A stretch of 64,000 nucleotides of DNA from Candidatus Magasanikiibacteriota bacterium. GTDB lineage: Bacteria; Patescibacteriota; Patescibacteriia; Magasanikbacterales; UBA922. The position numbers and the translations under genes were made by a program. Of the stretch, positions 750 through 54,228 are shown in pieces; the stretch's first letter is position 1; every line of letters begins with the position of its first letter. The notes under the pieces are model-generated. The model worked only from the letters and a program-made list of their open reading frames with translations, made no database searches and was not told where the DNA came from. The DNA lies in assembly GCA_014729395.1 (NCBI GenBank), contig WJJZ01000010.1:156544-220543 (forward strand), written 5' to 3'.

Positions 750-2444
750 TTAGTCATCACTCGCCATACGCAAAACCTCCTCTATTGTAGTAATACCTTT
801 AAAAACTTTGTCCATACCATCCTCAAGCATGGTGCTCATGCCTTTTTTCTTGGCCAATTCCGTAATTTCATCACTTGAAGCTCTTTTTAAAACCAACTCT
901 CTTATTTCATCATCCATTTCTAAAATTTCAAAAATACCAACTCGTCCGGTATAGCCGGTGCCACTACAAACTGGACAACCAGCTCCGTGATACAAAGTTA
1001 TGTCAGAAACTTTTTTACCTTTCCTGCCCTGCATCATCTTTTTTACAACTTCATGACTTTTTATAAATTTCTTTTGTTCTGCGGATAATTTCACGGAGGC
1101 CCTACACTTGGTACAAATTTTTCTTACCAATCTTTGGGCAATTACAACATTGACAGTAGAGGCAACCAAAAATGGCTCCACTTCCATATCCAATAGACGC
1201 GGTAAGGTGGTGGCGGCATCATTGGTATGGAGTGTGGATAAAACCAAGTGACCCGTCAATGCAGAATTAACAGCAATTCCGGCTGTTTCTTCATCTCTAA
1301 TTTCGCCTACCATGATAATATCAGGGTCTTGTCTCACAATAGAACGCAAACCCTTGGCAAAAGTCAGGTTTGTCTTGGTGTTTACTTGGATTTGACTAAC
1401 ACCCTCTATATCATATTCCACCGGATCTTCAATAGTAGCAATGTTTATCTCACGTTTATTTACTATTTTTAAAACAGCGTATAAAGTCGTGGTCTTACCT
1501 GAACCGGTCGGACCGGTTACCAAAACCATGCCATGTGGATGCTTTATCGCTCGTTTTACTTTTTTCAAATCCCTTTCTTGAAGACCCAAATCAACTAAGC
1601 TAAACTTTCTACTTCTGGCTGAAAGCAGACGCATTACCGTAGTTTCACCTTGGGTGACCGGAACCACAGAAACTCTAACATCTATCTTACCCTCGCTGGT
1701 TTCAAACCTCATTTTACCATCTTGCGCAGCTCTGTGTTCATCAGTTCTCATCTTTGATAGAATCTTTATTCTGGTCAAAATATATTCATACAAATTTTTT
1801 GGCAGCTCCAAAACATCATGCAAAATTCCATCAATTCTATATCGAACAACAGCTTTTTTCACATGAGCGTCAATATGTATATCAGAGGCTTTATTCTGGT
1901 GGGCATAACGTAACAAAAGATCAAGGACAGTAATAATCATACTATCTTTTTCTTCTCGGGATAATTCTTCATTTTTTAGCTTTCTTAAAACCCCTTTGAA
2001 CTCCTCTTTTAAACTGCCTTTGTATATTGTAAAAGCCTCTTCCAGTTGTTCAATCGTGGTAAAATATGGAATTACGTTTTGATGAACACGTTTTTCTATT
2101 AAACCTAAAGTTTCGATGTCTTGAGGATCGTTCATAGCTACTTTTACCCCTTTTTCAGACCTCTCAAAAGCAATCACTTTTTTGGTCTTGGCTACTAACT
2201 CTGGAATCAAAAGCAAAACATCCTCATCTATTTTTTGTTTTTTAAGGTTGACATATTTTACCCCCAAATGTTCGGCAATAGCCTGACCATAAAGATCCTC
2301 GGACAAAAGATTTTCTGAAAACAGATAATCAGAAAAAGAGGTCTTATATTCTTTGGCAAACTCCTCGGCCTTTTTTAAATCCTCTTGAGTAATGTAGTTT
2401 TGCTCCACTAAATTTTTTTTAATTAGATCTTCATTTAATTGCAT
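750..2444 (-). CDS. pilB: Type IV pilus assembly / type II secretion ATPase (GspE/PilB family)
   Basis: N-terminal T2SSE_N-like region, Walker A GPTGSGKTTT, Asp/His boxes, C-terminal tetracysteine CTKC...CPVCSGTGY zinc motif. Confidence 0.9.
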   Translation of the reverse strand: MQLNEDLIKKNLVEQNYITQEDLKKAEEFAKEYKTSFSDYLFSENLLSEDLYGQAIAEHLGVKYVNLKKQKIDEDVLLLIPELVAKTKKVIAFERSEKGVKVAMNDPQDIETLGLIEKRVHQNVIPYFTTIEQLEEAFTIYKGSLKEEFKGVLRKLKNEELSREEKDSMIITVLDLLLRYAHQNKASDIHIDAHVKKAVVRYRIDGILHDVLELPKNLYEYILTRIKILSKMRTDEHRAAQDGKMRFETSEGKIDVRVSVVPVTQGETTVMRLLSARSRKFSLVDLGLQERDLKKVKRAIKHPHGMVLVTGPTGSGKTTTLYAVLKIVNKREINIATIEDPVEYDIEGVSQIQVNTKTNLTFAKGLRSIVRQDPDIIMVGEIRDEETAGIAVNSALTGHLVLSTLHTNDAATTLPRLLDMEVEPFLVASTVNVVIAQRLVRKICTKCRASVKLSAEQKKFIKSHEVVKKMMQGRKGKKVSDITLYHGAGCPVCSGTGYTGRVGIFEILEMDDEIRELVLKRASSDEITELAKKKGMSTMLEDGMDKVFKGITTIEEVLRMASDD

Positions 2445-2466: not shown

Positions 2467-2835
2467 TTACTTTAATGTTTTTTTAACTATTTCAATTACA
2501 TCGCTAATTGGTACATCTGATTTGACAAGATATTCACTGGCACCAAGCTGTTTGGTCTTTTCTTTGTCACCATCTTGACTAAGATTGGTGGCAACTATAA
2601 CAGGAATTTTAATTCCTTTTTCTTTCATCTCTTCAAGAACGGTAAACCCGTCCTTTTTGGGCATTACCAAATCAAGTAACAAAAGATCATATTTGTTTTT
2701 GGACATTTTTTCCAAGGCATCTGCACCATCATAAGCAACCGAAACGGAAAACCCGGCACTGGTTAATTTCAGTTCCAAAGCTCGGGCCATTGGTTTTTCA
2801 TCCTCCGCTACGAGAATCTTTTTCTCTTTCGGCAT
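2467..2835 (-). CDS. Single-domain response regulator (CheY-like receiver)
   Basis: ILVAEDE...DLLLLDLVMPKKDG...K motif set of REC domains; 122 aa; immediately upstream of pilB. Confidence 0.8.
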   Translation of the reverse strand: MPKEKKILVAEDEKPMARALELKLTSAGFSVSVAYDGADALEKMSKNKYDLLLLDLVMPKKDGFTVLEEMKEKGIKIPVIVATNLSQDGDKEKTKQLGASEYLVKSDVPISDVIEIVKKTLK

Positions 2836-4779: not shown

Positions 4780-5724
4780 CTAATCACCTTGTGTAAAATA
4801 AGCGGTAAAATAACTGGTGGAATTTTTTATATTTTGCTGTAAATATTTACCGGAATTACTATGACGGATAATATTTAAATCACTGGCCCCAAGCATGTCC
4901 ATGGTTTTTAATAAAACAATTAAGGCTGCCGGTGCATCAATATAAGTATTATCAAACATTAAAATTTGGCTGTAAGCGCGATTTTCAATTGCGTCCCAAG
5001 TTATTTTATCCATATCAACTGATTCATCCGGGGTCAAATAATGTGAAAAATCAAAAGATCCAATGACCAAAACTTCATCGTTGCCGGAATATTCAGCCAG
5101 TCTGTCCGCTAATTTCTCCATGTCACTAATTTCTTTATTACTTAATATAACCAACGGAACTATGTCGGCTTTTGGAAAATAATATGAAACGAAAGCCACT
5201 GTGTTTTTAATGGAGTGTTCGGGAATAAAATTTTCATTATCATAAGAAACCAAACCACTAGCGACTAATTCATCGATAATAGTATAATTATTTTCTACCA
5301 CCCCAAACGGAGTCCGCCAATCCACTCGACCGCTAATAACATCATCCACGCCTTGACCGATGTGATTTGGTCCCAAAATAATTATGGTTTTTGGGTTTTC
5401 AGTTTCTTTAAGTCGAGAAAAGAATTCTGCAATATAATCTGAAACCAAATCATGATGAGGAATTATTCCACCATAAACTTTTTTATCTTTTTCTTGATAT
5501 GTTTTTTCACCGTTCTCTATGGCTGAATAAAACAATTCCCAGTTATAATCCAATTCAACTGTCTCCGCATACGGTTCGCTGTTAGAAAACACCGGACTAT
5601 GTTCATCTTTTATCTCAGTCAACATCTGTTGCTTGTAAAATATCAACAAAAAAATCACCACCAGACCGACAAAAGCGATGGCAGTGATTTTTAAGGTTTT
5701 AGATTGTCCGGTCTTATTCAACAT
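4780..5724 (-). CDS. MEMO1-family protein (AmmeMemoRadiSam system protein B-like) with N-terminal membrane anchor
   Basis: Motifs IPHHD, LGPNH, PEHSIKN, SFDFSHY match the MEMO1 family His/Asp metal-site motifs (PHAGY / GPSH / EHS / SDxSH). Confidence 0.55.
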   Translation of the reverse strand: MLNKTGQSKTLKITAIAFVGLVVIFLLIFYKQQMLTEIKDEHSPVFSNSEPYAETVELDYNWELFYSAIENGEKTYQEKDKKVYGGIIPHHDLVSDYIAEFFSRLKETENPKTIIILGPNHIGQGVDDVISGRVDWRTPFGVVENNYTIIDELVASGLVSYDNENFIPEHSIKNTVAFVSYYFPKADIVPLVILSNKEISDMEKLADRLAEYSGNDEVLVIGSFDFSHYLTPDESVDMDKITWDAIENRAYSQILMFDNTYIDAPAALIVLLKTMDMLGASDLNIIRHSNSGKYLQQNIKNSTSYFTAYFTQGD

Positions 5725-8700
5725 TTTCTATAACTATGGTACCCGGCTCGGAATAATTGATAATATCCTCGGTATTAACAGATTGGATTACGGCCGGCTC
5801 AACTGTAAATTCACCAAGCGAATTGACACGGGCATAGTATTTTCTATAACCGCATTTTGATCCCTTATAATAATTCGTTTTAATTATATTGTAACCGCTT
5901 CTATACGGATATATTATACAACTATCATAATCAATATCGCCCCTGGCATACGGTCTTTTGATTATACTTAAGCCGCTTGGTAATATATCGGTTACTGTGT
6001 AGGCGCCGTCAACAGAGTTGGGATTAATAGATGGATAAAGCCTCACCTCAACCACATCATTTTCTTTAAACGTAGTGGTTTCTTGACCATCTACAAAATA
6101 CTTTTTCTCAACTGATACATAAGTGACTCTCCCAGGTTCTTCGGCATACTGATTTGGAGCGGCAAAATATGATACGGTTACACCCACGTCGCCGTCTATC
6201 TCTTCAACTTTGAATGTTTCATATTGCTCCGGAGTAAGAGACAAGGTAAAAGTTCTACCTTTTTCCAATTCTTTTTCAATGCGCTTGCCATCAACGGTCA
6301 CAACAAAACTCACCGGAGTCGGTTTTAGATGTGTTAGCCTTTGCTTGATATACAAGAGCTCTTCCAAATTCACTAAAATTTCTCTAGTGTAATTCTTTTG
6401 AACATAATTCCACAATCTTTCGTGAAAATCATTATCCACACCGGCAGCTAAGTTGGCGGCGAGTGATGTAGCGGCCAAAATTTCGTCCTTATTGTCACTC
6501 GGTTTTATACGAACCATGCTTTCAAACTCTTCACCATAGTCGCTTAAGAGCTGATCTAACATATCGCGAGCTAGTTCGGTATCACCCAATTCTTCAGCCG
6601 CCAAAGCAATATAAAGACGATTTTTCACTGACAAATCCTCTTTTTGGGCCATTTTTTGCACCGGATACAAAACCGGTTCATCCAAAGCGGCCAAACCATA
6701 TAGTGACAGAGCGGCTTCATCTTCAGTCAAACTGGTTTGGTTGTAAAACCCGTAAAAATAATTGGCTAAAGCATTACGATCGAAAAATTGCGGGGCTAAA
6801 GCGGCTATTTTGGCCGACAGTTCAAAATCCGAATCGGCATATGACAACAAAGCAATACCGCCATTAGACATTTGGAATAAATTTTTATCAATTTCTTCAC
6901 CATTTCCTGTCATTTCGTCATCAAAATAAACTTGTTTGAATCTTCCGGCTAAGACGCGAGAAAGTTTTTGATCGATTCTGTCACCCCAAGTCCAAGCCAA
7001 TCTGGTCAAACGGTTGTAGAATTTACCTTGGCTTTCATCAGAAAAAATCATTTTAAATCTATCTTCAGGAATTTGTACCAGTTTTATATCTTGTGTCAGT
7101 TCATAAAAATCAGTAAATTCTTTCTTAAGCCTGGAATCTATAACGGAAATAGGCCTGATAACAGCGTCACTATAGCCGTTTGTCTTTACCGAGTGATATA
7201 GAGGATAAACACCTTTTTTAAGGTTACCCAAATCAAAATATTCCGGAACGAAAGCATACGAGGATCGCTCTTCATCAATACCCAGGTCATCAATTGTCAT
7301 TGAAAAATCAACCTTATCTCCCCGGTTCAATGAACTACCATAGGCTCTCAACTTAACGATAGGTTTATCACTTGCCAAATACTCGTCAGCAAATGTTCCC
7401 AAGACAAAAACCGGTTTACTGACATTTATGTTGCCGGTTGACTGACCGGCCAAAAGTGACTTGGTAACAGCTTTGGCATTAACTCGCCAAGAAGTAATAT
7501 TGTCGGGTAATTTGAAACTTATTTCACCCTTGCCATTACTGGCGGTTTGTCCGGAAAAGAACATAGCAGTATCCTTGAAGTCCACTCGTGCTCCGCCTTT
7601 TTCATTATGTACATAAATGCCATTGGCAATATAAGTATGATAATCAGCCACATGAAAATTAAACACCTCAACTGTCTTTTTCACTTTCTCAATATTTTCA
7701 ATCAAAATATAGTTACCATCCGCGTCCAACATAAAATCACCTACCTTGGCCTCGCCGATCATTTGCCAACCATCGTTGATATAGAATCTATGTTCCGGAG
7801 TTACTTCTATAGAATCATTTATAATAATATAACCCGGAACAACATGTTGAAAGGTTTCCACAACCTTGGCTTTGGTTAATTTTCTTGTTGCCGGTGAATC
7901 ATAAGTCAAAATCTCATCACCCGGGACAATATCCTCAATATTTTTTAAACTACCATCCGCCATAGTAATTTTGGTTCCGGACAAAAAGCAACCGGCCCCA
8001 CCTTCGGCTCCACTTTGATCAAATAAGGGGGTTTCGTGTGAACTATAGCTAAACAATTCACCACTTGGGACACCTGCATACAATTCCGACAATGTATTAC
8101 TGTAATCCTCTCTAATCTTATAAACAGCCTCATCAACCAAATTTATATTAAAACTTGACCTAACTCCACGACCAAATTTATCTTTGACGCTAATATACAA
8201 ATTTACATCTTCTCCGGGCTGATAAGTTTGCTTTTCACTAACCACTTCAATATCCAACTCCCTATCAGACTTGGCGACTCTGATGACAGAACCATTACCT
8301 CCTCCACCAAACCAATAATTGCTATAGGTCTCATGAAAAGTATTCCCATCATACCATACCCCTTTTAAACGTAAATTTGGTATGTCTTCTTCAGTAAATT
8401 TAAATCCGTATTCTGAATTCTGACTGACTTGGTAATCTTGCAAACCGCGCTGCATTTGCAAAAACAGAAAATCATTTTTGTCTGATCCGGACAGTTCTTT
8501 TCCATTATTTTTCATTTCCACTTTAACCGTCTCACCGATCGAGTACTCATTAAGATCCCTGTCTTCTGTCTCCTGTTTATCTTTTATTTCCAATTCATAA
8601 AAATCATAATCATACCTTGATTGAAAATTATAAAAATAAGCGGTTTGATAAAAAGCCCGACCATGATTATCTTTGGCAAAAACTTTAACGCGATAATTTT

Positions 8701-11284
8701 TATCTTTTTCAACATCAAACCGGTATTTATGTTCACCGCTGGCGCCGGTATTACCACTAAACTCGCCTACTTTATTCTCATAATAACTATATGAATATCT
8801 TTTACGTGTCACTTTATTTATAAAATCATAATCAGTACCGATTTCTTGTCTTTTATAACCAACTTCATATATTTCCGCTCTAAAATCAACATTGGCTCTC
8901 ACCGGACCCCGATAATCATAATAAATATTACCATCCCCACTGTTAATCTTATCAAAATCAAAGTAATTAAACTTGGTTGTTACTTCTGCTTTACCATCCT
9001 CCACCTTATTCGCTTTAACACTACCCAAAGTATCAAAATTGGCCACAATCACCATGGTACGACCGCTTATTTCTCCCAGTTCCGAATCTGCAGGATGAGC
9101 TTCTAAAGACTTATAAGACACACTAGCACAAGACCACTTATGTGTGCAGCTATGCTCTGATGTATTTATTACAGTCTTGACCCTGCCTTGAGAATCAGTA
9201 GTAACCTGTTGTCCATCAACCGATAAATCCAAATATGGTACTGGCGTCCCTTCAAAAAAATTAGTCTCAGCATCCAAATTAATATCTTCTCCGGCATAAA
9301 CAGCATACTTTTCCGGTGTAAGCTCTATTTGGTATTCGGGCTTAATATAATCTTGAACATTAATAAAATCCCTGGTCACGAATTCACCATCTACAAATAA
9401 CTCGACATGATAATATCCACTTTTAAGATCTTCCAAATTAAATTCCGCGGAAAAAGCACCGTTTGGATCCAATTCAATACTTACCTCTTCCAAAACAGCT
9501 GTTTCATGGTAATAATTAAAATAATCATTTTTTATAAGCTGAAGTTTTATGTCCTTATTTTTTAAATCATTACCATCACGATCTTGTAAAAACCCCCATA
9601 AATGGACTTTGTCATCCGGTTTGTAAACAGGTCTATCTTTTTCCAAAATTGTCCAATAGTCACCACCAAGGTTTCGATCGTATTTACTCAATTTAAACAA
9701 TGCTTTCTCCGATCCGTCGTCTATTACGATCTCATCGCTATCGGCATTAATCTTTTCAGTATCAAAAACCACCAGGCCATTGCTATTTGATGTGTATTCG
9801 TCTCCACTCCCAACCAGCCTAACTTTGGCAGCATTTATGGATGTATCGCTTTGTGCGTTCTTAAGCCAAACCAAAGACTGGTCTTCCAGTATATTTATAT
9901 AGGCGGCAATATTGGTAACTTGAAAAAAAGTCTGTAAAGTTCTATTGTCCGGTGTTTGCAGTTCCAGAGCATAAAAACCAACATCCAGGCTATCAGGTAA
10001 AACCAGATAATCTCTATTACGTGATTCGGTTGTTTTTAGATCAATATCCATGACTTGAACTGCATTACCAAGGTCAATCTTGGTATATCGATTCTGATAA
10101 CTCGCCCATGAAGGTATGGCACTTTTTTGACTAACCAATCTTTGATAGTTTTCCAAATTACCTAAATTATATACCGATACTTTATACTCAGCTTGGGTAC
10201 CATGCTCATATACCGGGAAAAAAGGAGTTACATCCGGAGAAAACTCACTAAGCTCTTTTCTAAAATAAATTTTTCGATAATTAGAAGCCGAGCCAGCAGC
10301 ATTGGTCTCAAATTGAAATTGAAAATCTTCTTCCAGTGATTCATCGGAATTTTCAAGGGGTAAATTTTTATCTACAGTTATAGTATAAATGGTACCGCTT
10401 TGTAATGTTTCATTTGGTACTAAAACCAAAGTCCGACCATGCTTTTCAAATCTATGGCTGATATTAGGTTCAATTGTGACATATTTATAATAATCATAAT
10501 AATCTTCATGACTAAAATAAATTTCTATACCGGTATTTAGCGGTACTTCGTCAACTTTGTCGCGCGGTAAACTGCCATAAATTTTAAACTGATCTTTGAC
10601 TTGGAAAGCCCAAGAATAGTCGCGCTCAACTGTTAAACCCTCGGAATTAACATATGCTGAATCAATTTTTAAATTATAAACAGTCCTGGTTTGAAGAGGA
10701 CTTTTTGGTGTAACTTTAAATTCTTGATTACTTATTACTTCAAAATTAAAATCAACCTCCGGAGTTAATTTAATATTTTCTTTTAACAAATTACTGTCTT
10801 CTATTTCGTCCTTGCTTTTTATTACAAAAGCGGTGCTGCTATCCACACCCAGACTGTCTGACTCAGTGGCTTCAACCGTAAAATTATCCTGGGCATAGGC
10901 CGGATTTATCAATAATTTTGAAAAGGGATCAAATAAACCGCCCGGCTGGCTTGGTTGCCAAATATAGATACTCGATATTGTGACCAATACCACCAGACCA
11001 ACAATCGCGGCCGGTACCAATCGCTTTGGCCTAAATAGGGTTTTTAGGGAAGCAATATTCAAACTTGGTTTTTTCATAATAATATTTTTTTTGCGCCGTT
11101 TCTCAATGATGTCTCGCTTTAGCGAATTTTTAAACTCTTGAGAAGCAGGCTGTGAATTAAAAATCCCCCGCTTGAGTTTACCCTCTGCTTCCTTTAACGA
11201 CGCAAACTTGGATTCATTACGTTTTTTATTGGATTTTTTATTATCCAAAAAATTCATTTTTTTATTTTTTGCCTTATTTTTCAT
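5714..11284 (-). CDS. Giant (1856 aa) single-pass membrane protein: Lys-rich cytoplasmic N-terminus, TM helix, Ig-like (Big_5/SbsA-type) and macroglobulin-like beta domains, embedded Hint/mini-intein-like domain, alpha-2-macroglobulin (A2M) domain, alpha-helical TED-like region without thioester, C-terminal receptor-binding-like domain
   Basis: A2M hallmark FKLPDNITSWR; TED-like LSLYGLAALDEP region but no CxEQ; C-terminal MG8-like region; start codon overlaps the stop of the upstream ECF sigma gene (ATGAAAAATAA overlap). Confidence 0.8.
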   Translation of the reverse strand: MKNKAKNKKMNFLDNKKSNKKRNESKFASLKEAEGKLKRGIFNSQPASQEFKNSLKRDIIEKRRKKNIIMKKPSLNIASLKTLFRPKRLVPAAIVGLVVLVTISSIYIWQPSQPGGLFDPFSKLLINPAYAQDNFTVEATESDSLGVDSSTAFVIKSKDEIEDSNLLKENIKLTPEVDFNFEVISNQEFKVTPKSPLQTRTVYNLKIDSAYVNSEGLTVERDYSWAFQVKDQFKIYGSLPRDKVDEVPLNTGIEIYFSHEDYYDYYKYVTIEPNISHRFEKHGRTLVLVPNETLQSGTIYTITVDKNLPLENSDESLEEDFQFQFETNAAGSASNYRKIYFRKELSEFSPDVTPFFPVYEHGTQAEYKVSVYNLGNLENYQRLVSQKSAIPSWASYQNRYTKIDLGNAVQVMDIDLKTTESRNRDYLVLPDSLDVGFYALELQTPDNRTLQTFFQVTNIAAYINILEDQSLVWLKNAQSDTSINAAKVRLVGSGDEYTSNSNGLVVFDTEKINADSDEIVIDDGSEKALFKLSKYDRNLGGDYWTILEKDRPVYKPDDKVHLWGFLQDRDGNDLKNKDIKLQLIKNDYFNYYHETAVLEEVSIELDPNGAFSAEFNLEDLKSGYYHVELFVDGEFVTRDFINVQDYIKPEYQIELTPEKYAVYAGEDINLDAETNFFEGTPVPYLDLSVDGQQVTTDSQGRVKTVINTSEHSCTHKWSCASVSYKSLEAHPADSELGEISGRTMVIVANFDTLGSVKANKVEDGKAEVTTKFNYFDFDKINSGDGNIYYDYRGPVRANVDFRAEIYEVGYKRQEIGTDYDFINKVTRKRYSYSYYENKVGEFSGNTGASGEHKYRFDVEKDKNYRVKVFAKDNHGRAFYQTAYFYNFQSRYDYDFYELEIKDKQETEDRDLNEYSIGETVKVEMKNNGKELSGSDKNDFLFLQMQRGLQDYQVSQNSEYGFKFTEEDIPNLRLKGVWYDGNTFHETYSNYWFGGGGNGSVIRVAKSDRELDIEVVSEKQTYQPGEDVNLYISVKDKFGRGVRSSFNINLVDEAVYKIREDYSNTLSELYAGVPSGELFSYSSHETPLFDQSGAEGGAGCFLSGTKITMADGSLKNIEDIVPGDEILTYDSPATRKLTKAKVVETFQHVVPGYIIINDSIEVTPEHRFYINDGWQMIGEAKVGDFMLDADGNYILIENIEKVKKTVEVFNFHVADYHTYIANGIYVHNEKGGARVDFKDTAMFFSGQTASNGKGEISFKLPDNITSWRVNAKAVTKSLLAGQSTGNINVSKPVFVLGTFADEYLASDKPIVKLRAYGSSLNRGDKVDFSMTIDDLGIDEERSSYAFVPEYFDLGNLKKGVYPLYHSVKTNGYSDAVIRPISVIDSRLKKEFTDFYELTQDIKLVQIPEDRFKMIFSDESQGKFYNRLTRLAWTWGDRIDQKLSRVLAGRFKQVYFDDEMTGNGEEIDKNLFQMSNGGIALLSYADSDFELSAKIAALAPQFFDRNALANYFYGFYNQTSLTEDEAALSLYGLAALDEPVLYPVQKMAQKEDLSVKNRLYIALAAEELGDTELARDMLDQLLSDYGEEFESMVRIKPSDNKDEILAATSLAANLAAGVDNDFHERLWNYVQKNYTREILVNLEELLYIKQRLTHLKPTPVSFVVTVDGKRIEKELEKGRTFTLSLTPEQYETFKVEEIDGDVGVTVSYFAAPNQYAEEPGRVTYVSVEKKYFVDGQETTTFKENDVVEVRLYPSINPNSVDGAYTVTDILPSGLSIIKRPYARGDIDYDSCIIYPYRSGYNIIKTNYYKGSKCGYRKYYARVNSLGEFTVEPAVIQSVNTEDIINYSEPGTIVIENVE
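7604..7990 (-). other. Hint / bacterial intein-like (BIL) mini-intein domain embedded in the A2M-like protein (aa 1099-1227)
   Basis: Block A CFLSGTKITMADG, block B TPEHRF (TxxH), block F/G VFNFHVADYHTYIANGIYVHN ending His-Asn; +1 residue is Glu (not Cys/Ser/Thr); no endonuclease domain. Confidence 0.75.
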
Positions 11285-11843
11285 ATTTTTTGTGTATCAA
11301 AGCAAATTTTTTCAAAGCTCTGTGAATTGTTACCCGGCTATTGTTCACCGACATACCCATAACCTCGGCTATTTCTTGGTTAGATAGTTCGGCATAAAAC
11401 TTCAAATGCAATATTCTTTGATATTTTTCTTTTAAATCACCTAAAGCTTTTTGAACTATTGTAGCCTCATATGATGCCTGCATTTCATCTTCGGGTGAAT
11501 CGGATTCAATCGGTTTATTTTCTAATCCTTCCATACCGGATTCTTTTTTCCTTCCTTGTTTACGGTAATAATCAATTAAATTATTATTGGCAATTGTATA
11601 AATCCAAGAAGAAAAACTGCCTTTTTTCGGGCTAAAACCGCTTAAATTACAAAAAACTTTCATAAAAGTACTAGATACCAAATCTTCAGTTGCTTCTTTA
11701 TTGCCGGTACGTTTAAAGATAAAGCCATATATCTTGGGAAAATAATGTTCATACAAAATTTCAAAAGAAGCTTCATCATCTTTTGCTTTTTCCACCAGCT
11801 GATTTTCATTTTTTATTTTTTCATTTTTGACACTCTCTGCCAT
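11274..11843 (-). CDS. ECF-type RNA polymerase sigma-70 factor
   Basis: Sigma70 region 2 (FMKVFCNLSGF...WIYTIANNNLIDYYRK) and region 4 HTH (LSNQEIAEVMGMSVNNSRVTIHRALKK); 189 aa. Confidence 0.85.
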   Translation of the reverse strand: MAESVKNEKIKNENQLVEKAKDDEASFEILYEHYFPKIYGFIFKRTGNKEATEDLVSSTFMKVFCNLSGFSPKKGSFSSWIYTIANNNLIDYYRKQGRKKESGMEGLENKPIESDSPEDEMQASYEATIVQKALGDLKEKYQRILHLKFYAELSNQEIAEVMGMSVNNSRVTIHRALKKFALIHKKYEK

Positions 11844-53870: not shown

Positions 53871-54228
53871 AATATATAATTTTAGGCTTATTTACAATAA
53901 AAAACTGTGGTTTTCACCACAGACCTTGAAGTTTCGATAAAAATCGACCTAGAAGACAAAAAATCTTCTTTCTACCTCGGTAGCGTATTTAATCCTTTTT
54001 TGGAAGCTACTGTCTGCGGTTTTTAGTGTTTACATAATAACAAAATTAAAAAATCATGTCAATACCTTGACAAATTAGCTAAAATGTGATAAAAATCAAT
54101 ATCTTTCGCCCTTTTCTATTACAAAATAAGGAGGATTGATGATATAAAGATAAAAATAATTTAACCGGCAGAAGGAAAGATCTTTCACCAACGTGACAAC
54201 TCCTTCTGTACAACAGAAGGAGAAAGTC

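Follow-up and report, generated by a model that had tools for sequence, protein, structure and literature searches.

To our knowledge, every protein of the alpha-2-macroglobulin (A2M) family (A2M, C3/C4/C5, TEPs, CD109, ECAM) is switched on when an outside protease cuts it just before the N-terminal segment of the alpha' chain (alpha'NT). Among bacterial A2Ms, YfaS/MagD represents a thioester-less type. So far, bacterial intein-like (BIL) and other Hint domains have been met chiefly in variable surface proteins and at the tips of toxins, and the PT-HINT form lies just upstream of the tips of polymorphic toxins. Here we analysed a stretch of 64,000 nt from a Candidatus Magasanikiibacteriota bacterium (contig WJJZ01000010.1; the whole stretch is called the window), in which a gene at 5714..11284 (-) encodes an A2M-like protein of 1856 aa with an embedded Hint domain at aa 1099-1227. 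Residue numbers refer to this protein, and window positions are on the minus strand unless marked otherwise. A-type BIL/PT-HINT domains and bacterial A2Ms are each already known, while a Hint fixed at the A2M bait/alpha'NT position is apparently undescribed: the open-access literature yielded no description of a Hint, intein or BIL domain there.

In native A2M-family proteins the alpha'NT threads through a channel, and a chain discontinuity just upstream of it is the trigger of the conformational change (PMC9352918). The human A2M bait comprises P690-T728, followed by the conserved alpha'NT residues R732/F735 (PMC9352918). In ECAM, elastase cleavage removes the segment Arg923-Leu942, and the cleaved bait is described as including Arg956 (PMC4498604). 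The products of BIL domains are for the most part N- and C-cleaved chains (review, PMC7664689); A-type BILs cleave at the C-terminal Asn (review, PMC7765530), and known BILs are described in hypervariable regions of non-conserved proteins (PMC7765530).

From sequence comparison, we give a probability of about one half to the reading that the Hint is a built-in self-cleaving trigger, placed in the bait region of an A2M-like protein that is anchored in the membrane and has no thioester.

The Hint domain and its place in the A2M scaffold

The Hint domain (7604..7990) is 129 aa long and has no endonuclease insert, in line with the preliminary description of this DNA, which was made from the letters alone. 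Block A (CFLSGTKI) occupies aa 1099-1106 (7967-7990) and begins with Cys1099, Hint residue 1 and the predicted nucleophile of the N-S acyl shift (7988..7990). Block B (TPEHRF) lies at aa 1162-1167, its TPEH (Thr1162, His1165) being encoded at 7790..7801. Blocks F/G (NFHVADYHTYIANGIYVHN) cover aa 1209-1227 (7604-7660), so that the domain ends in ...IYVHN. His1226-Asn1227 of block G (7604..7609) is the putative site of Asn cyclisation and C-terminal cleavage, and Glu1228 follows directly as the +1 residue.

Pfam PT-HINT matches aa 1108-1227 (6e-14; 52.9 bits vs a cut-off of 27.7). In a phmmer search against PDB, the best match was the BIL domain 2LWY, aligned end to end with aa 1099-1227 (7.5e-14), and engineered mini-inteins of RecA and DnaB came next, also end to end (about 1e-5 to 2e-5). 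In an AlphaFold2 model of aa 860-1856, run with 43 homologue sequences, the predicted local distance difference test (pLDDT) over the Hint is 81-95 as means of 10-residue blocks. The open reading frame (ORF), PT-HINT, 2LWY and AlphaFold2 together bear out the domain limits and motif residues of the preliminary description. The domain has the marks of the HINT superfamily, namely the fold with blocks A, B, F and G, a Cys1 nucleophile and Thr-x-x-His in block B.

Among the solved members of this superfamily, an A-type BIL is the closest (Clostridium thermocellum BIL, 2LWY; PF07591). The likeness includes a length of about 130 aa, no endonuclease, an N-terminal Cys, the block B TxxH and, at the C-terminus, His-Asn with a non-nucleophilic residue at +1; the host is in both cases an exported bacterial protein. 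By these matches aa 1099-1227 is an endonuclease-free Hint of the A-type BIL kind (Pfam PT-HINT), and it is apparently catalytically competent. However, location in a hypervariable region of a non-conserved secreted protein, a further feature of A-type BILs, is not found: the host is exported, but its family is conserved, and the Hint always stands at the same site, one that is critical for function and not hypervariable, and has co-diverged with its host.

Class 1 mini-inteins (RecA, DnaB) share the fold and blocks A, B, F and G. The window Hint differs from canonical class 1 inteins in having Glu in place of a +1 Cys/Ser/Thr, no homing endonuclease and no evidence of mobility, a host which is no conserved housekeeping enzyme, and an insertion site in a flexible loop. 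It also differs from Hedgehog-type (Hog) domains, with an invariant His-Asn and an A2M chain that continues straight after the Hint. Some homologues carry the pipeline label "polymorphic toxin-type HINT domain-containing protein", and several bear the corresponding name at NCBI. A polymorphic-toxin pretoxin module was ruled out, with no variable toxin domain but a conserved A2M C-terminal half directly downstream of the Hint. Outside A2M, the Hint has its nearest relatives (33-42% identity) in giant multi-Hint surface proteins, namely P0240 (2780 aa), P0249 (3399 aa), P0291 and P0310 (1285 aa), where 3-9 stretches each match a Hint; two of these proteins also have Pfam matches to PKD, Ig-like and MopE-type domains.

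The host protein is 100% identical to P0001, a hypothetical protein of a Candidatus Magasanikbacteria metagenome-assembled genome, and its gene is supported by ORF call, Pfam, profile and Foldseek. Pfam recognises Big_5 and MG2 (both upstream), A2M_BRD, PT-HINT and A2M. The A2M_BRD match (aa 911-1056; 8117..8554; 2.8e-10) is the macroglobulin domain preceding the bait. The A2M domain (aa 1242-1294; 7403..7561; 6.1e-08) contains FKLPDNITSWR (aa 1257-1267; 7484-7516), which lies 30 aa past Asn1227, the distance noted before, and it is followed by a thioester-domain-like helical region and a C-terminal macroglobulin domain.

The family profile matches E. coli ECAM/YfhM and Salmonella A2M (SaA2M) along almost the full length (5.7e-75 for ECAM, profile positions 240-1665). 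A single-sequence phmmer search of the whole protein against PDB returned Hint relatives only and no A2M, and the A2M match required the family profile. Foldseek with the AlphaFold2 model gave ECAM (5a42, 3.2e-30) and SaA2M (about 1e-30) as first matches. Its TM-scores were higher to activated (0.38-0.42) than to native A2M (0.21-0.32), with the C-terminal fragment 4ziu (0.24) as an exception, but were given no weight, as the model is truncated. The protein thus belongs with the A2M / C3 superfamily, whose members string macroglobulin domains together with a CUB domain and a helical domain of the thioester-domain kind, and it is homologous to solved members along its length. The bait / alpha'NT part of that superfamily is present too: a conserved Arg and a conserved Phe precede the latter half of a split macroglobulin domain.

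By profile alignment, the insertion point falls between ECAM Gly949 and Arg956, within the ECAM bait-region domain and not outside it, so that the bait-region position proposed earlier stands. Arg1233 is invariant and Phe1236 is kept in at least 90% of homologues; their counterparts in the profile alignment are R732/F735 of human A2M and the corresponding residues of CD109. With the Hint deleted from the profile, the R/F pair aligned with 'VRKHFPETW' of CD109, and the human A2M alignment began at residue 731. The insertion therefore lies 6 residues ahead of the R732/F735-equivalent residues and just past the human bait. The +1 residue together with the alpha'NT-like segment that contains Arg1233 and Phe1236 (EKGGARVDFKDTA) is encoded at 7565..7603. 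For C5, residues 582-629 and 785-859 are the alignment partners of the two insertion flanks, and the C5 stretch between them holds linker, processing site, anaphylatoxin domain and alpha'NT. From the ECAM, human A2M, CD109 and C5 alignments, the Hint, by homology, occupies the bait position of A2M, or the anaphylatoxin-domain position of complement.

Upstream of the Hint is a Gly-rich, bait-like linker (aa 1077-1098, LFSYSSHETPLFDQSGAEGGAG; 7991..8056) that aligns with ECAM at about 930-949. About 20 aa of it (aa 1077-1096) have pLDDT < 50 and are predicted to be disordered, and it ends in a conserved AE.GG motif and then Gly at -1. Hint-less relatives have a loop of similar length at the insertion site. 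Therefore, the earlier proposal that the bait was swapped for a self-cleaving module holds for the position but goes too far as to the swap, since a disordered linker remains. The AE.GG motif (GAEGGAG, aa 1092-1098; 7991-8011 (-)) is kept in Hint-bearing, Hint-less and thioester-family members, and its ECAM counterpart is RFGGDG.

Compared with ECAM/YfhM and SaA2M, which are of the thioester type, the window protein has the same multi-macroglobulin-domain architecture along the whole length; like bacterial A2Ms it is predicted to lie outside the cytoplasm, anchored in the membrane, and to have its disordered bait loop within a macroglobulin domain. It is unlike them in having Arg for the thioester Cys, a transmembrane helix and cytoplasmic domain instead of a lipobox, gene partners for an extracytoplasmic function (ECF) sigma factor and a Memo-family protein rather than PbpC or a mag operon, and a folded, putatively self-processing domain at the bait end. 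Complement C3/C4/C5 offer another parallel, with a folded domain (about 77-130 aa) between the halves of one macroglobulin domain (MG6 in complement), directly before an Arg/Phe alpha'NT. There, removal by a cut at the inserted domain's C-terminal end is the activating event, as we propose for the window protein. However, furin and convertases make the cuts in complement, whereas the window Hint would cut itself out, and the anaphylatoxin domain and the Hint are not homologous.

Conservation and history of the Hint

A2M homologues exist both with and without the insertion, which the preliminary description advised to look for: among the 120 clusters from a homologue search, 76 contain the Hint and about 35 lack it, the Hint-less proteins being shorter by roughly 130 aa. 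Cys1 and the terminal His-Asn are invariant in the Hint-bearing homologues (76 of 76), and all but one of the 76 have Gly at -1. At +1, 74 of them have D/E/Q/N/G/A (P0083 has Asp by alignment) and 2 have Thr. In 75 aligned homologues, C1099, H1165, D1183, H1226 and N1227 are invariant, and T1162 is kept in 73. Lys is found at +2 in 63 of the 76 proteins.

An exhaustive search with aa 1040-1300 against 1.84 billion cluster representatives gave 410 clusters with E ≤ 1e-30, and among the 150 best, about 130 match flank, Hint and flank together. This points to a Hint-in-A2M design common to hundreds of relatives among the same uncultivated bacterial group, the candidate phyla radiation (CPR). We examined 134 new representatives, of which 99 satisfy the strict pattern, with the +1 residue distributed as D46, E18, Q17, S8, A6, N2, T1 and I1, and with 3-11 aa between the His-Asn and the alpha'NT Arg. 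When the thioester-less family, a thioester-bearing sister family (described below) and these 99 representatives were pooled (197 homologues), the +1 residue was D/E/Q/N/G/A/I in 186, Ser/Thr in 11 and Cys in 0, with D/E/Q in about 85% of homologues. Cys1 and His-Asn are present wherever examined in this set, and nearly all members of the thioester-less family and most of the sister family have the 129-aa length. With this domain at one site in about 200 homologues, the feature goes far beyond chance. Thus Glu1228 is typical of a family with a non-nucleophilic +1 residue, as expected of the BIL type named earlier, and the homologues are not canonical inteins of which the window copy is a decayed remnant.

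No part of the protein is more conserved than the Hint, with a mean pairwise identity of 0.50 vs 0.36-0.43 for the macroglobulin and thioester-domain-like regions of the host. Hint and host distances are correlated (Pearson r = 0.79, 73 sequences), and the GC content is 0.357 in Hint-coding DNA and 0.372 in the whole gene. The co-divergence and the matching GC therefore argue for long-standing vertical inheritance and rule out a recent mobile insertion. A decayed canonical intein was also ruled out, by the invariant catalytic residues and the +1 residue being non-nucleophilic across the family. Since the terminal His-Asn is invariant, the alignments show that C-terminal cleavage, beyond the N-S shift alone, is putatively under selection.

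The same data bear on whether the Hint might be a catalytically silent structural insertion or decayed intein remnant, which lengthens or stiffens the bait loop. The Glu at +1 would suit such an element, for it rules out canonical splicing. However, about 200 sequences, with host identities down to about 30%, all keep the catalytic residues, which would have disappeared from a decayed remnant, and the length is fixed at 129 aa nearly throughout; we therefore regard a silent insertion as highly improbable.

For the history of the Hint, a neighbour-joining tree of the host was built with Hint and flanks left out (100 bootstraps). A Hint-less clade (P0070-P0082 and P0072) is nested in the Hint-bearing clade (98 of 100 bootstraps), and the Hint-bearing P0086 and P0089 are placed outside the main clade (91 of 100). 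This phylogeny implies at least one precise loss of the Hint and, beyond it, either more losses or a transfer from one A2M gene to another.

Where the A2M thioester motif would stand, the window protein has GDRIDQ (aa 1434-1439; 6968..6985), aligned with GCLEQ of ECAM (1186-1190). Of 113 family members, 109 have Arg in place of the thioester Cys, and in 112 of 113 no CxEQ is found near the thioester-equivalent position; the remaining one, P0111, is a thioester-family member, and three members have stray CxEQ matches elsewhere. The window protein thus does not have the internal thioester (CxEQ) of the A2M / C3 superfamily, but this does not exclude membership, because thioester-less members such as C5 are known (PMC9352918).

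A search seeded with P0111 revealed a second CPR A2M family of 22 clusters, from sources named Moraniibacteriota and Pacebacteria (P0111, P0121-P0136, P0138, P0140-P0143; for example L006 4001-9199). These proteins contain the same 129-aa Hint at the same site, with AEGGG before the domain (C...VHN) and [QNDE]KGG..R..FKDTAYW after it, and an intact GCxEQ about 225 residues downstream. P0137, P0139 and P0144 are Hint-less sisters of this thioester family. Because thioester-bearing sisters carry the same Hint at the same site, the Hint, as far as sequence tells, goes with the bait position and not with the absence of the thioester. A Hint that compensates for the missing thioester was therefore ruled out, and the earlier suggestion that Hint thioester chemistry stands in for that of A2M is not supported.

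A related possibility is Hedgehog-like acyl transfer, in which an external nucleophile (a protease lysine, a cell-wall amine or a lipid) would resolve the Gly1098-Cys1099 thioester, and the membrane-anchored N-terminal half would become covalently coupled to a target, in replacement of the lost A2M thioester. The invariant Cys1 and block B TxxH, with which a thioester intermediate should form, are in its favour, as is a family without CxEQ and with Arg at the thioester Cys position. It is nevertheless improbable: the 22 clusters with the same Hint keep GCxEQ, the thioester-less family also has Hint-less members, the terminal His-Asn is invariant though not needed for Hedgehog-type transfer, and the A2M chain runs on directly after the Hint, where no sterol- or adduct-recognition region is found.

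Proposed self-cleavage and possible splicing

In the self-cleaving trigger that we favour, Cys1099 would undergo the N-S acyl shift at Gly1098-Cys1099 after export and folding, and Asn1227 would cyclise, assisted by His1226, to give the C-terminal cut. Because Glu at +1 makes transesterification impossible, cleaved chains would be the main products, as for BIL domains. The C-terminal cut would create a new N-terminus, EKGGA-R1233-VD-F1236, an alpha'NT like that from a protease-cut A2M bait or convertase-cut C3/C5, and thioester hydrolysis at the N-terminal end would then free the Hint. As it sits where the anaphylatoxin domain or the bait sits, the Hint may serve as a self-removing stopper, by which the A2M-type switch would fire or mature with no protease from outside. 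Under the plug-in-channel model, its excision would break the chain continuity that holds the native state of the A2M family. Self-cleavage may also prime or gate transmembrane signalling via the ECF sigma partner, as in RsgI and FecR.

Self-cleavage itself we infer from the conserved residues and favour over splicing, its main rival. In the splicing alternative, the Hint would be a fixed mini-intein-like element: after N-S shift and Asn cyclisation, the alpha-amine of Glu1228 would attack the thioester (the aminolysis of A-type BILs) and the flanks would be re-ligated. The mature protein would then have an intact short bait loop, and the Hint would be a neutral or selfish passenger whose catalytic residues are kept only because failed excision would cripple the host.

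Several observations weigh against self-cleavage and on the side of splicing. The Hint was lost precisely in the nested clade (98 of 100 bootstraps), whose hosts are retained and do without it, as with a neutral intein-like element. Its distribution is patchy, with P0086/P0089 outside the main clade and a second A2M family, and the site is always identical. The hypothetical spliced junction, GAEGGG-DKGG.R, resembles the loop of Hint-less relatives, GAEGG-GGDG..R. The homologues with Ser/Thr at +1 (11 of 197) could splice canonically, and an A-type BIL can reportedly ligate its flanks without a +1 nucleophile, as is said to have been found by Dassa et al. in 2004. In the thioester-bearing sister family, moreover, constitutive self-cleavage would fire the thioester prematurely unless regulated.

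However, other evidence speaks against splicing. In published summaries BILs mostly give cleaved products and A-type BILs cannot ligate (PMC7664689, PMC7765530). A single +1 mutation to Cys/Ser makes BILs splice efficiently (PMC7664689), and selection for splicing should favour Cys/Ser, whereas D/E/Q predominates at this position. The Hint is more conserved than its host over the full domain length, it has no endonuclease, and neither the distance correlation nor the GC content gives signs of mobility. Moreover, the Hint interrupts a surface protein at a Gly-rich loop, whereas inteins sit at conserved catalytic sites. On balance we consider splicing rather unlikely.

If the Hint is a self-cleaving trigger, it would fire the conformational machine of A2M independently of proteases, which would be new for the family, and would offer a natural test of the plug-in-channel trigger model. 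BIL/Hint domains would also gain a defined physiological role at a fixed site. We further propose, tentatively and at somewhat less than even odds, a large CPR clade of A2M/complement-like proteins that activate themselves through Hint excision by Asn cyclisation and alpha'NT release, which would drive the conformational switch of A2M, with one branch wired to ECF sigma factors as A2M-like anti-sigma sensors (thioester-less) and another deploying a thioester. In the latter branch, the reactive thioester would possibly be deployed for covalent attachment to a host cell surface.

Gene neighbourhood and other features of the window

With its last 11 nt, the ECF sigma-factor gene (11274..11843 (-); Sigma70_r2 4e-18, r4_2 1.6e-13) overlaps the beginning of the A2M-Hint gene. 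Such an overlap, of 4-20 nt, exists in 5 of 6 family loci inspected (the window, L002 3451-4020, L003 3481-4008, L004 3378-4004 and L007 2474-3004). Coupled pairs of ECF sigma and A2M-like genes are found at P0008 and P0084 (both with Hint) and at P0075 and P0091 (both Hint-less).

The window protein begins with a candidate anti-sigma domain, cytoplasmic by prediction (aa 1-87; 11024..11284), which is marked by a motif conserved in homologues. It is followed by a single transmembrane helix (aa 88-110; 10955..11023), identified by hydrophobicity scan and translation. Many members likewise have a conserved cytoplasmic N-domain of 70-90 aa and then one transmembrane helix, and in many homologues the N-domain contains the motif ..ALLEAE.KIK..EPAS.DF..LK..IL..R, which differs from the zinc-finger motif. 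The latter, HxxxCxxC of zinc-finger anti-sigma factors, is present at the N-terminus of the Hint-less P0088 (zf-HC2, 4.4e-09) and P0091. Pfam gave no match at the N-terminus of the window protein, where no recognisable anti-sigma domain (zf-HC2/ZAS, RskA-type) was found, and no anti-sigma match in the N-terminal cytoplasmic domains of CPR members.

Generally, an ECF anti-sigma factor is encoded directly after its sigma gene and translationally coupled to it, as is the window protein, which is an N-in single-pass membrane protein by prediction. Judging from gene order, the A2M-Hint protein is probably the anti-sigma partner of the upstream ECF sigma factor. Because of the coupled sigma genes, the N-domain with its transmembrane helix and the zinc-finger motif of P0091, the family has the look of anti-sigma factors whose extracytoplasmic sensor domain is A2M-like. 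The link to ECF sigma factors hints at anti-sigma sensors built on an A2M scaffold as a class not yet described, in bacteria of a group whose surface biology is almost unknown. Nothing relevant on A2M combined with anti-sigma factors was found in the open-access literature.

Autoproteolysis occurs in anti-sigma factors such as RsgI and FecR (PMC10328401, PMC12036975). RsgI (C. thermocellum) and FecR/FoxR resemble the window protein, whose anti-sigma role and self-cleavage are putative, the former from gene order only, in being single-pass anti-sigma-like proteins beside an ECF sigma factor with extracytoplasmic self-cleavage. They are unlike it in using short autoproteolytic motifs and acyl rearrangements in unrelated domains, not a Hint, and they are not known to have an A2M-like sensor.

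Directly downstream of the A2M-Hint gene is a Memo-family gene (4780..5724 (-); PF01875, 9e-30), also with an 11-nt overlap. The same gene follows directly, often overlapping, in other loci (L002 9639-10565, L003 9166-10083 and L006 9192-10073), and the pairing is found in both thioester-less and thioester-bearing Hint families. P0093 (L005 4001-9154), a Hint-less protein of Acetivibrio clariflavus, has no sigma-factor gene upstream. Its C-terminal type I dockerin suggests that this A2M-like protein is displayed on the cellulosome.

A 110-aa ORF with a TTG start lies at 7547-7879 (+), antisense to the Hint-coding region, and is most likely spurious. Elsewhere, the window holds ordinary genome content, including a type II/IV secretion (PilB-like) ATPase gene (750-2444 (-)) with an adjacent gene for a single-domain response regulator (2467-2835 (-)), six tRNA genes and a ribosomal protein L10 leader (53889-54037 (-)).

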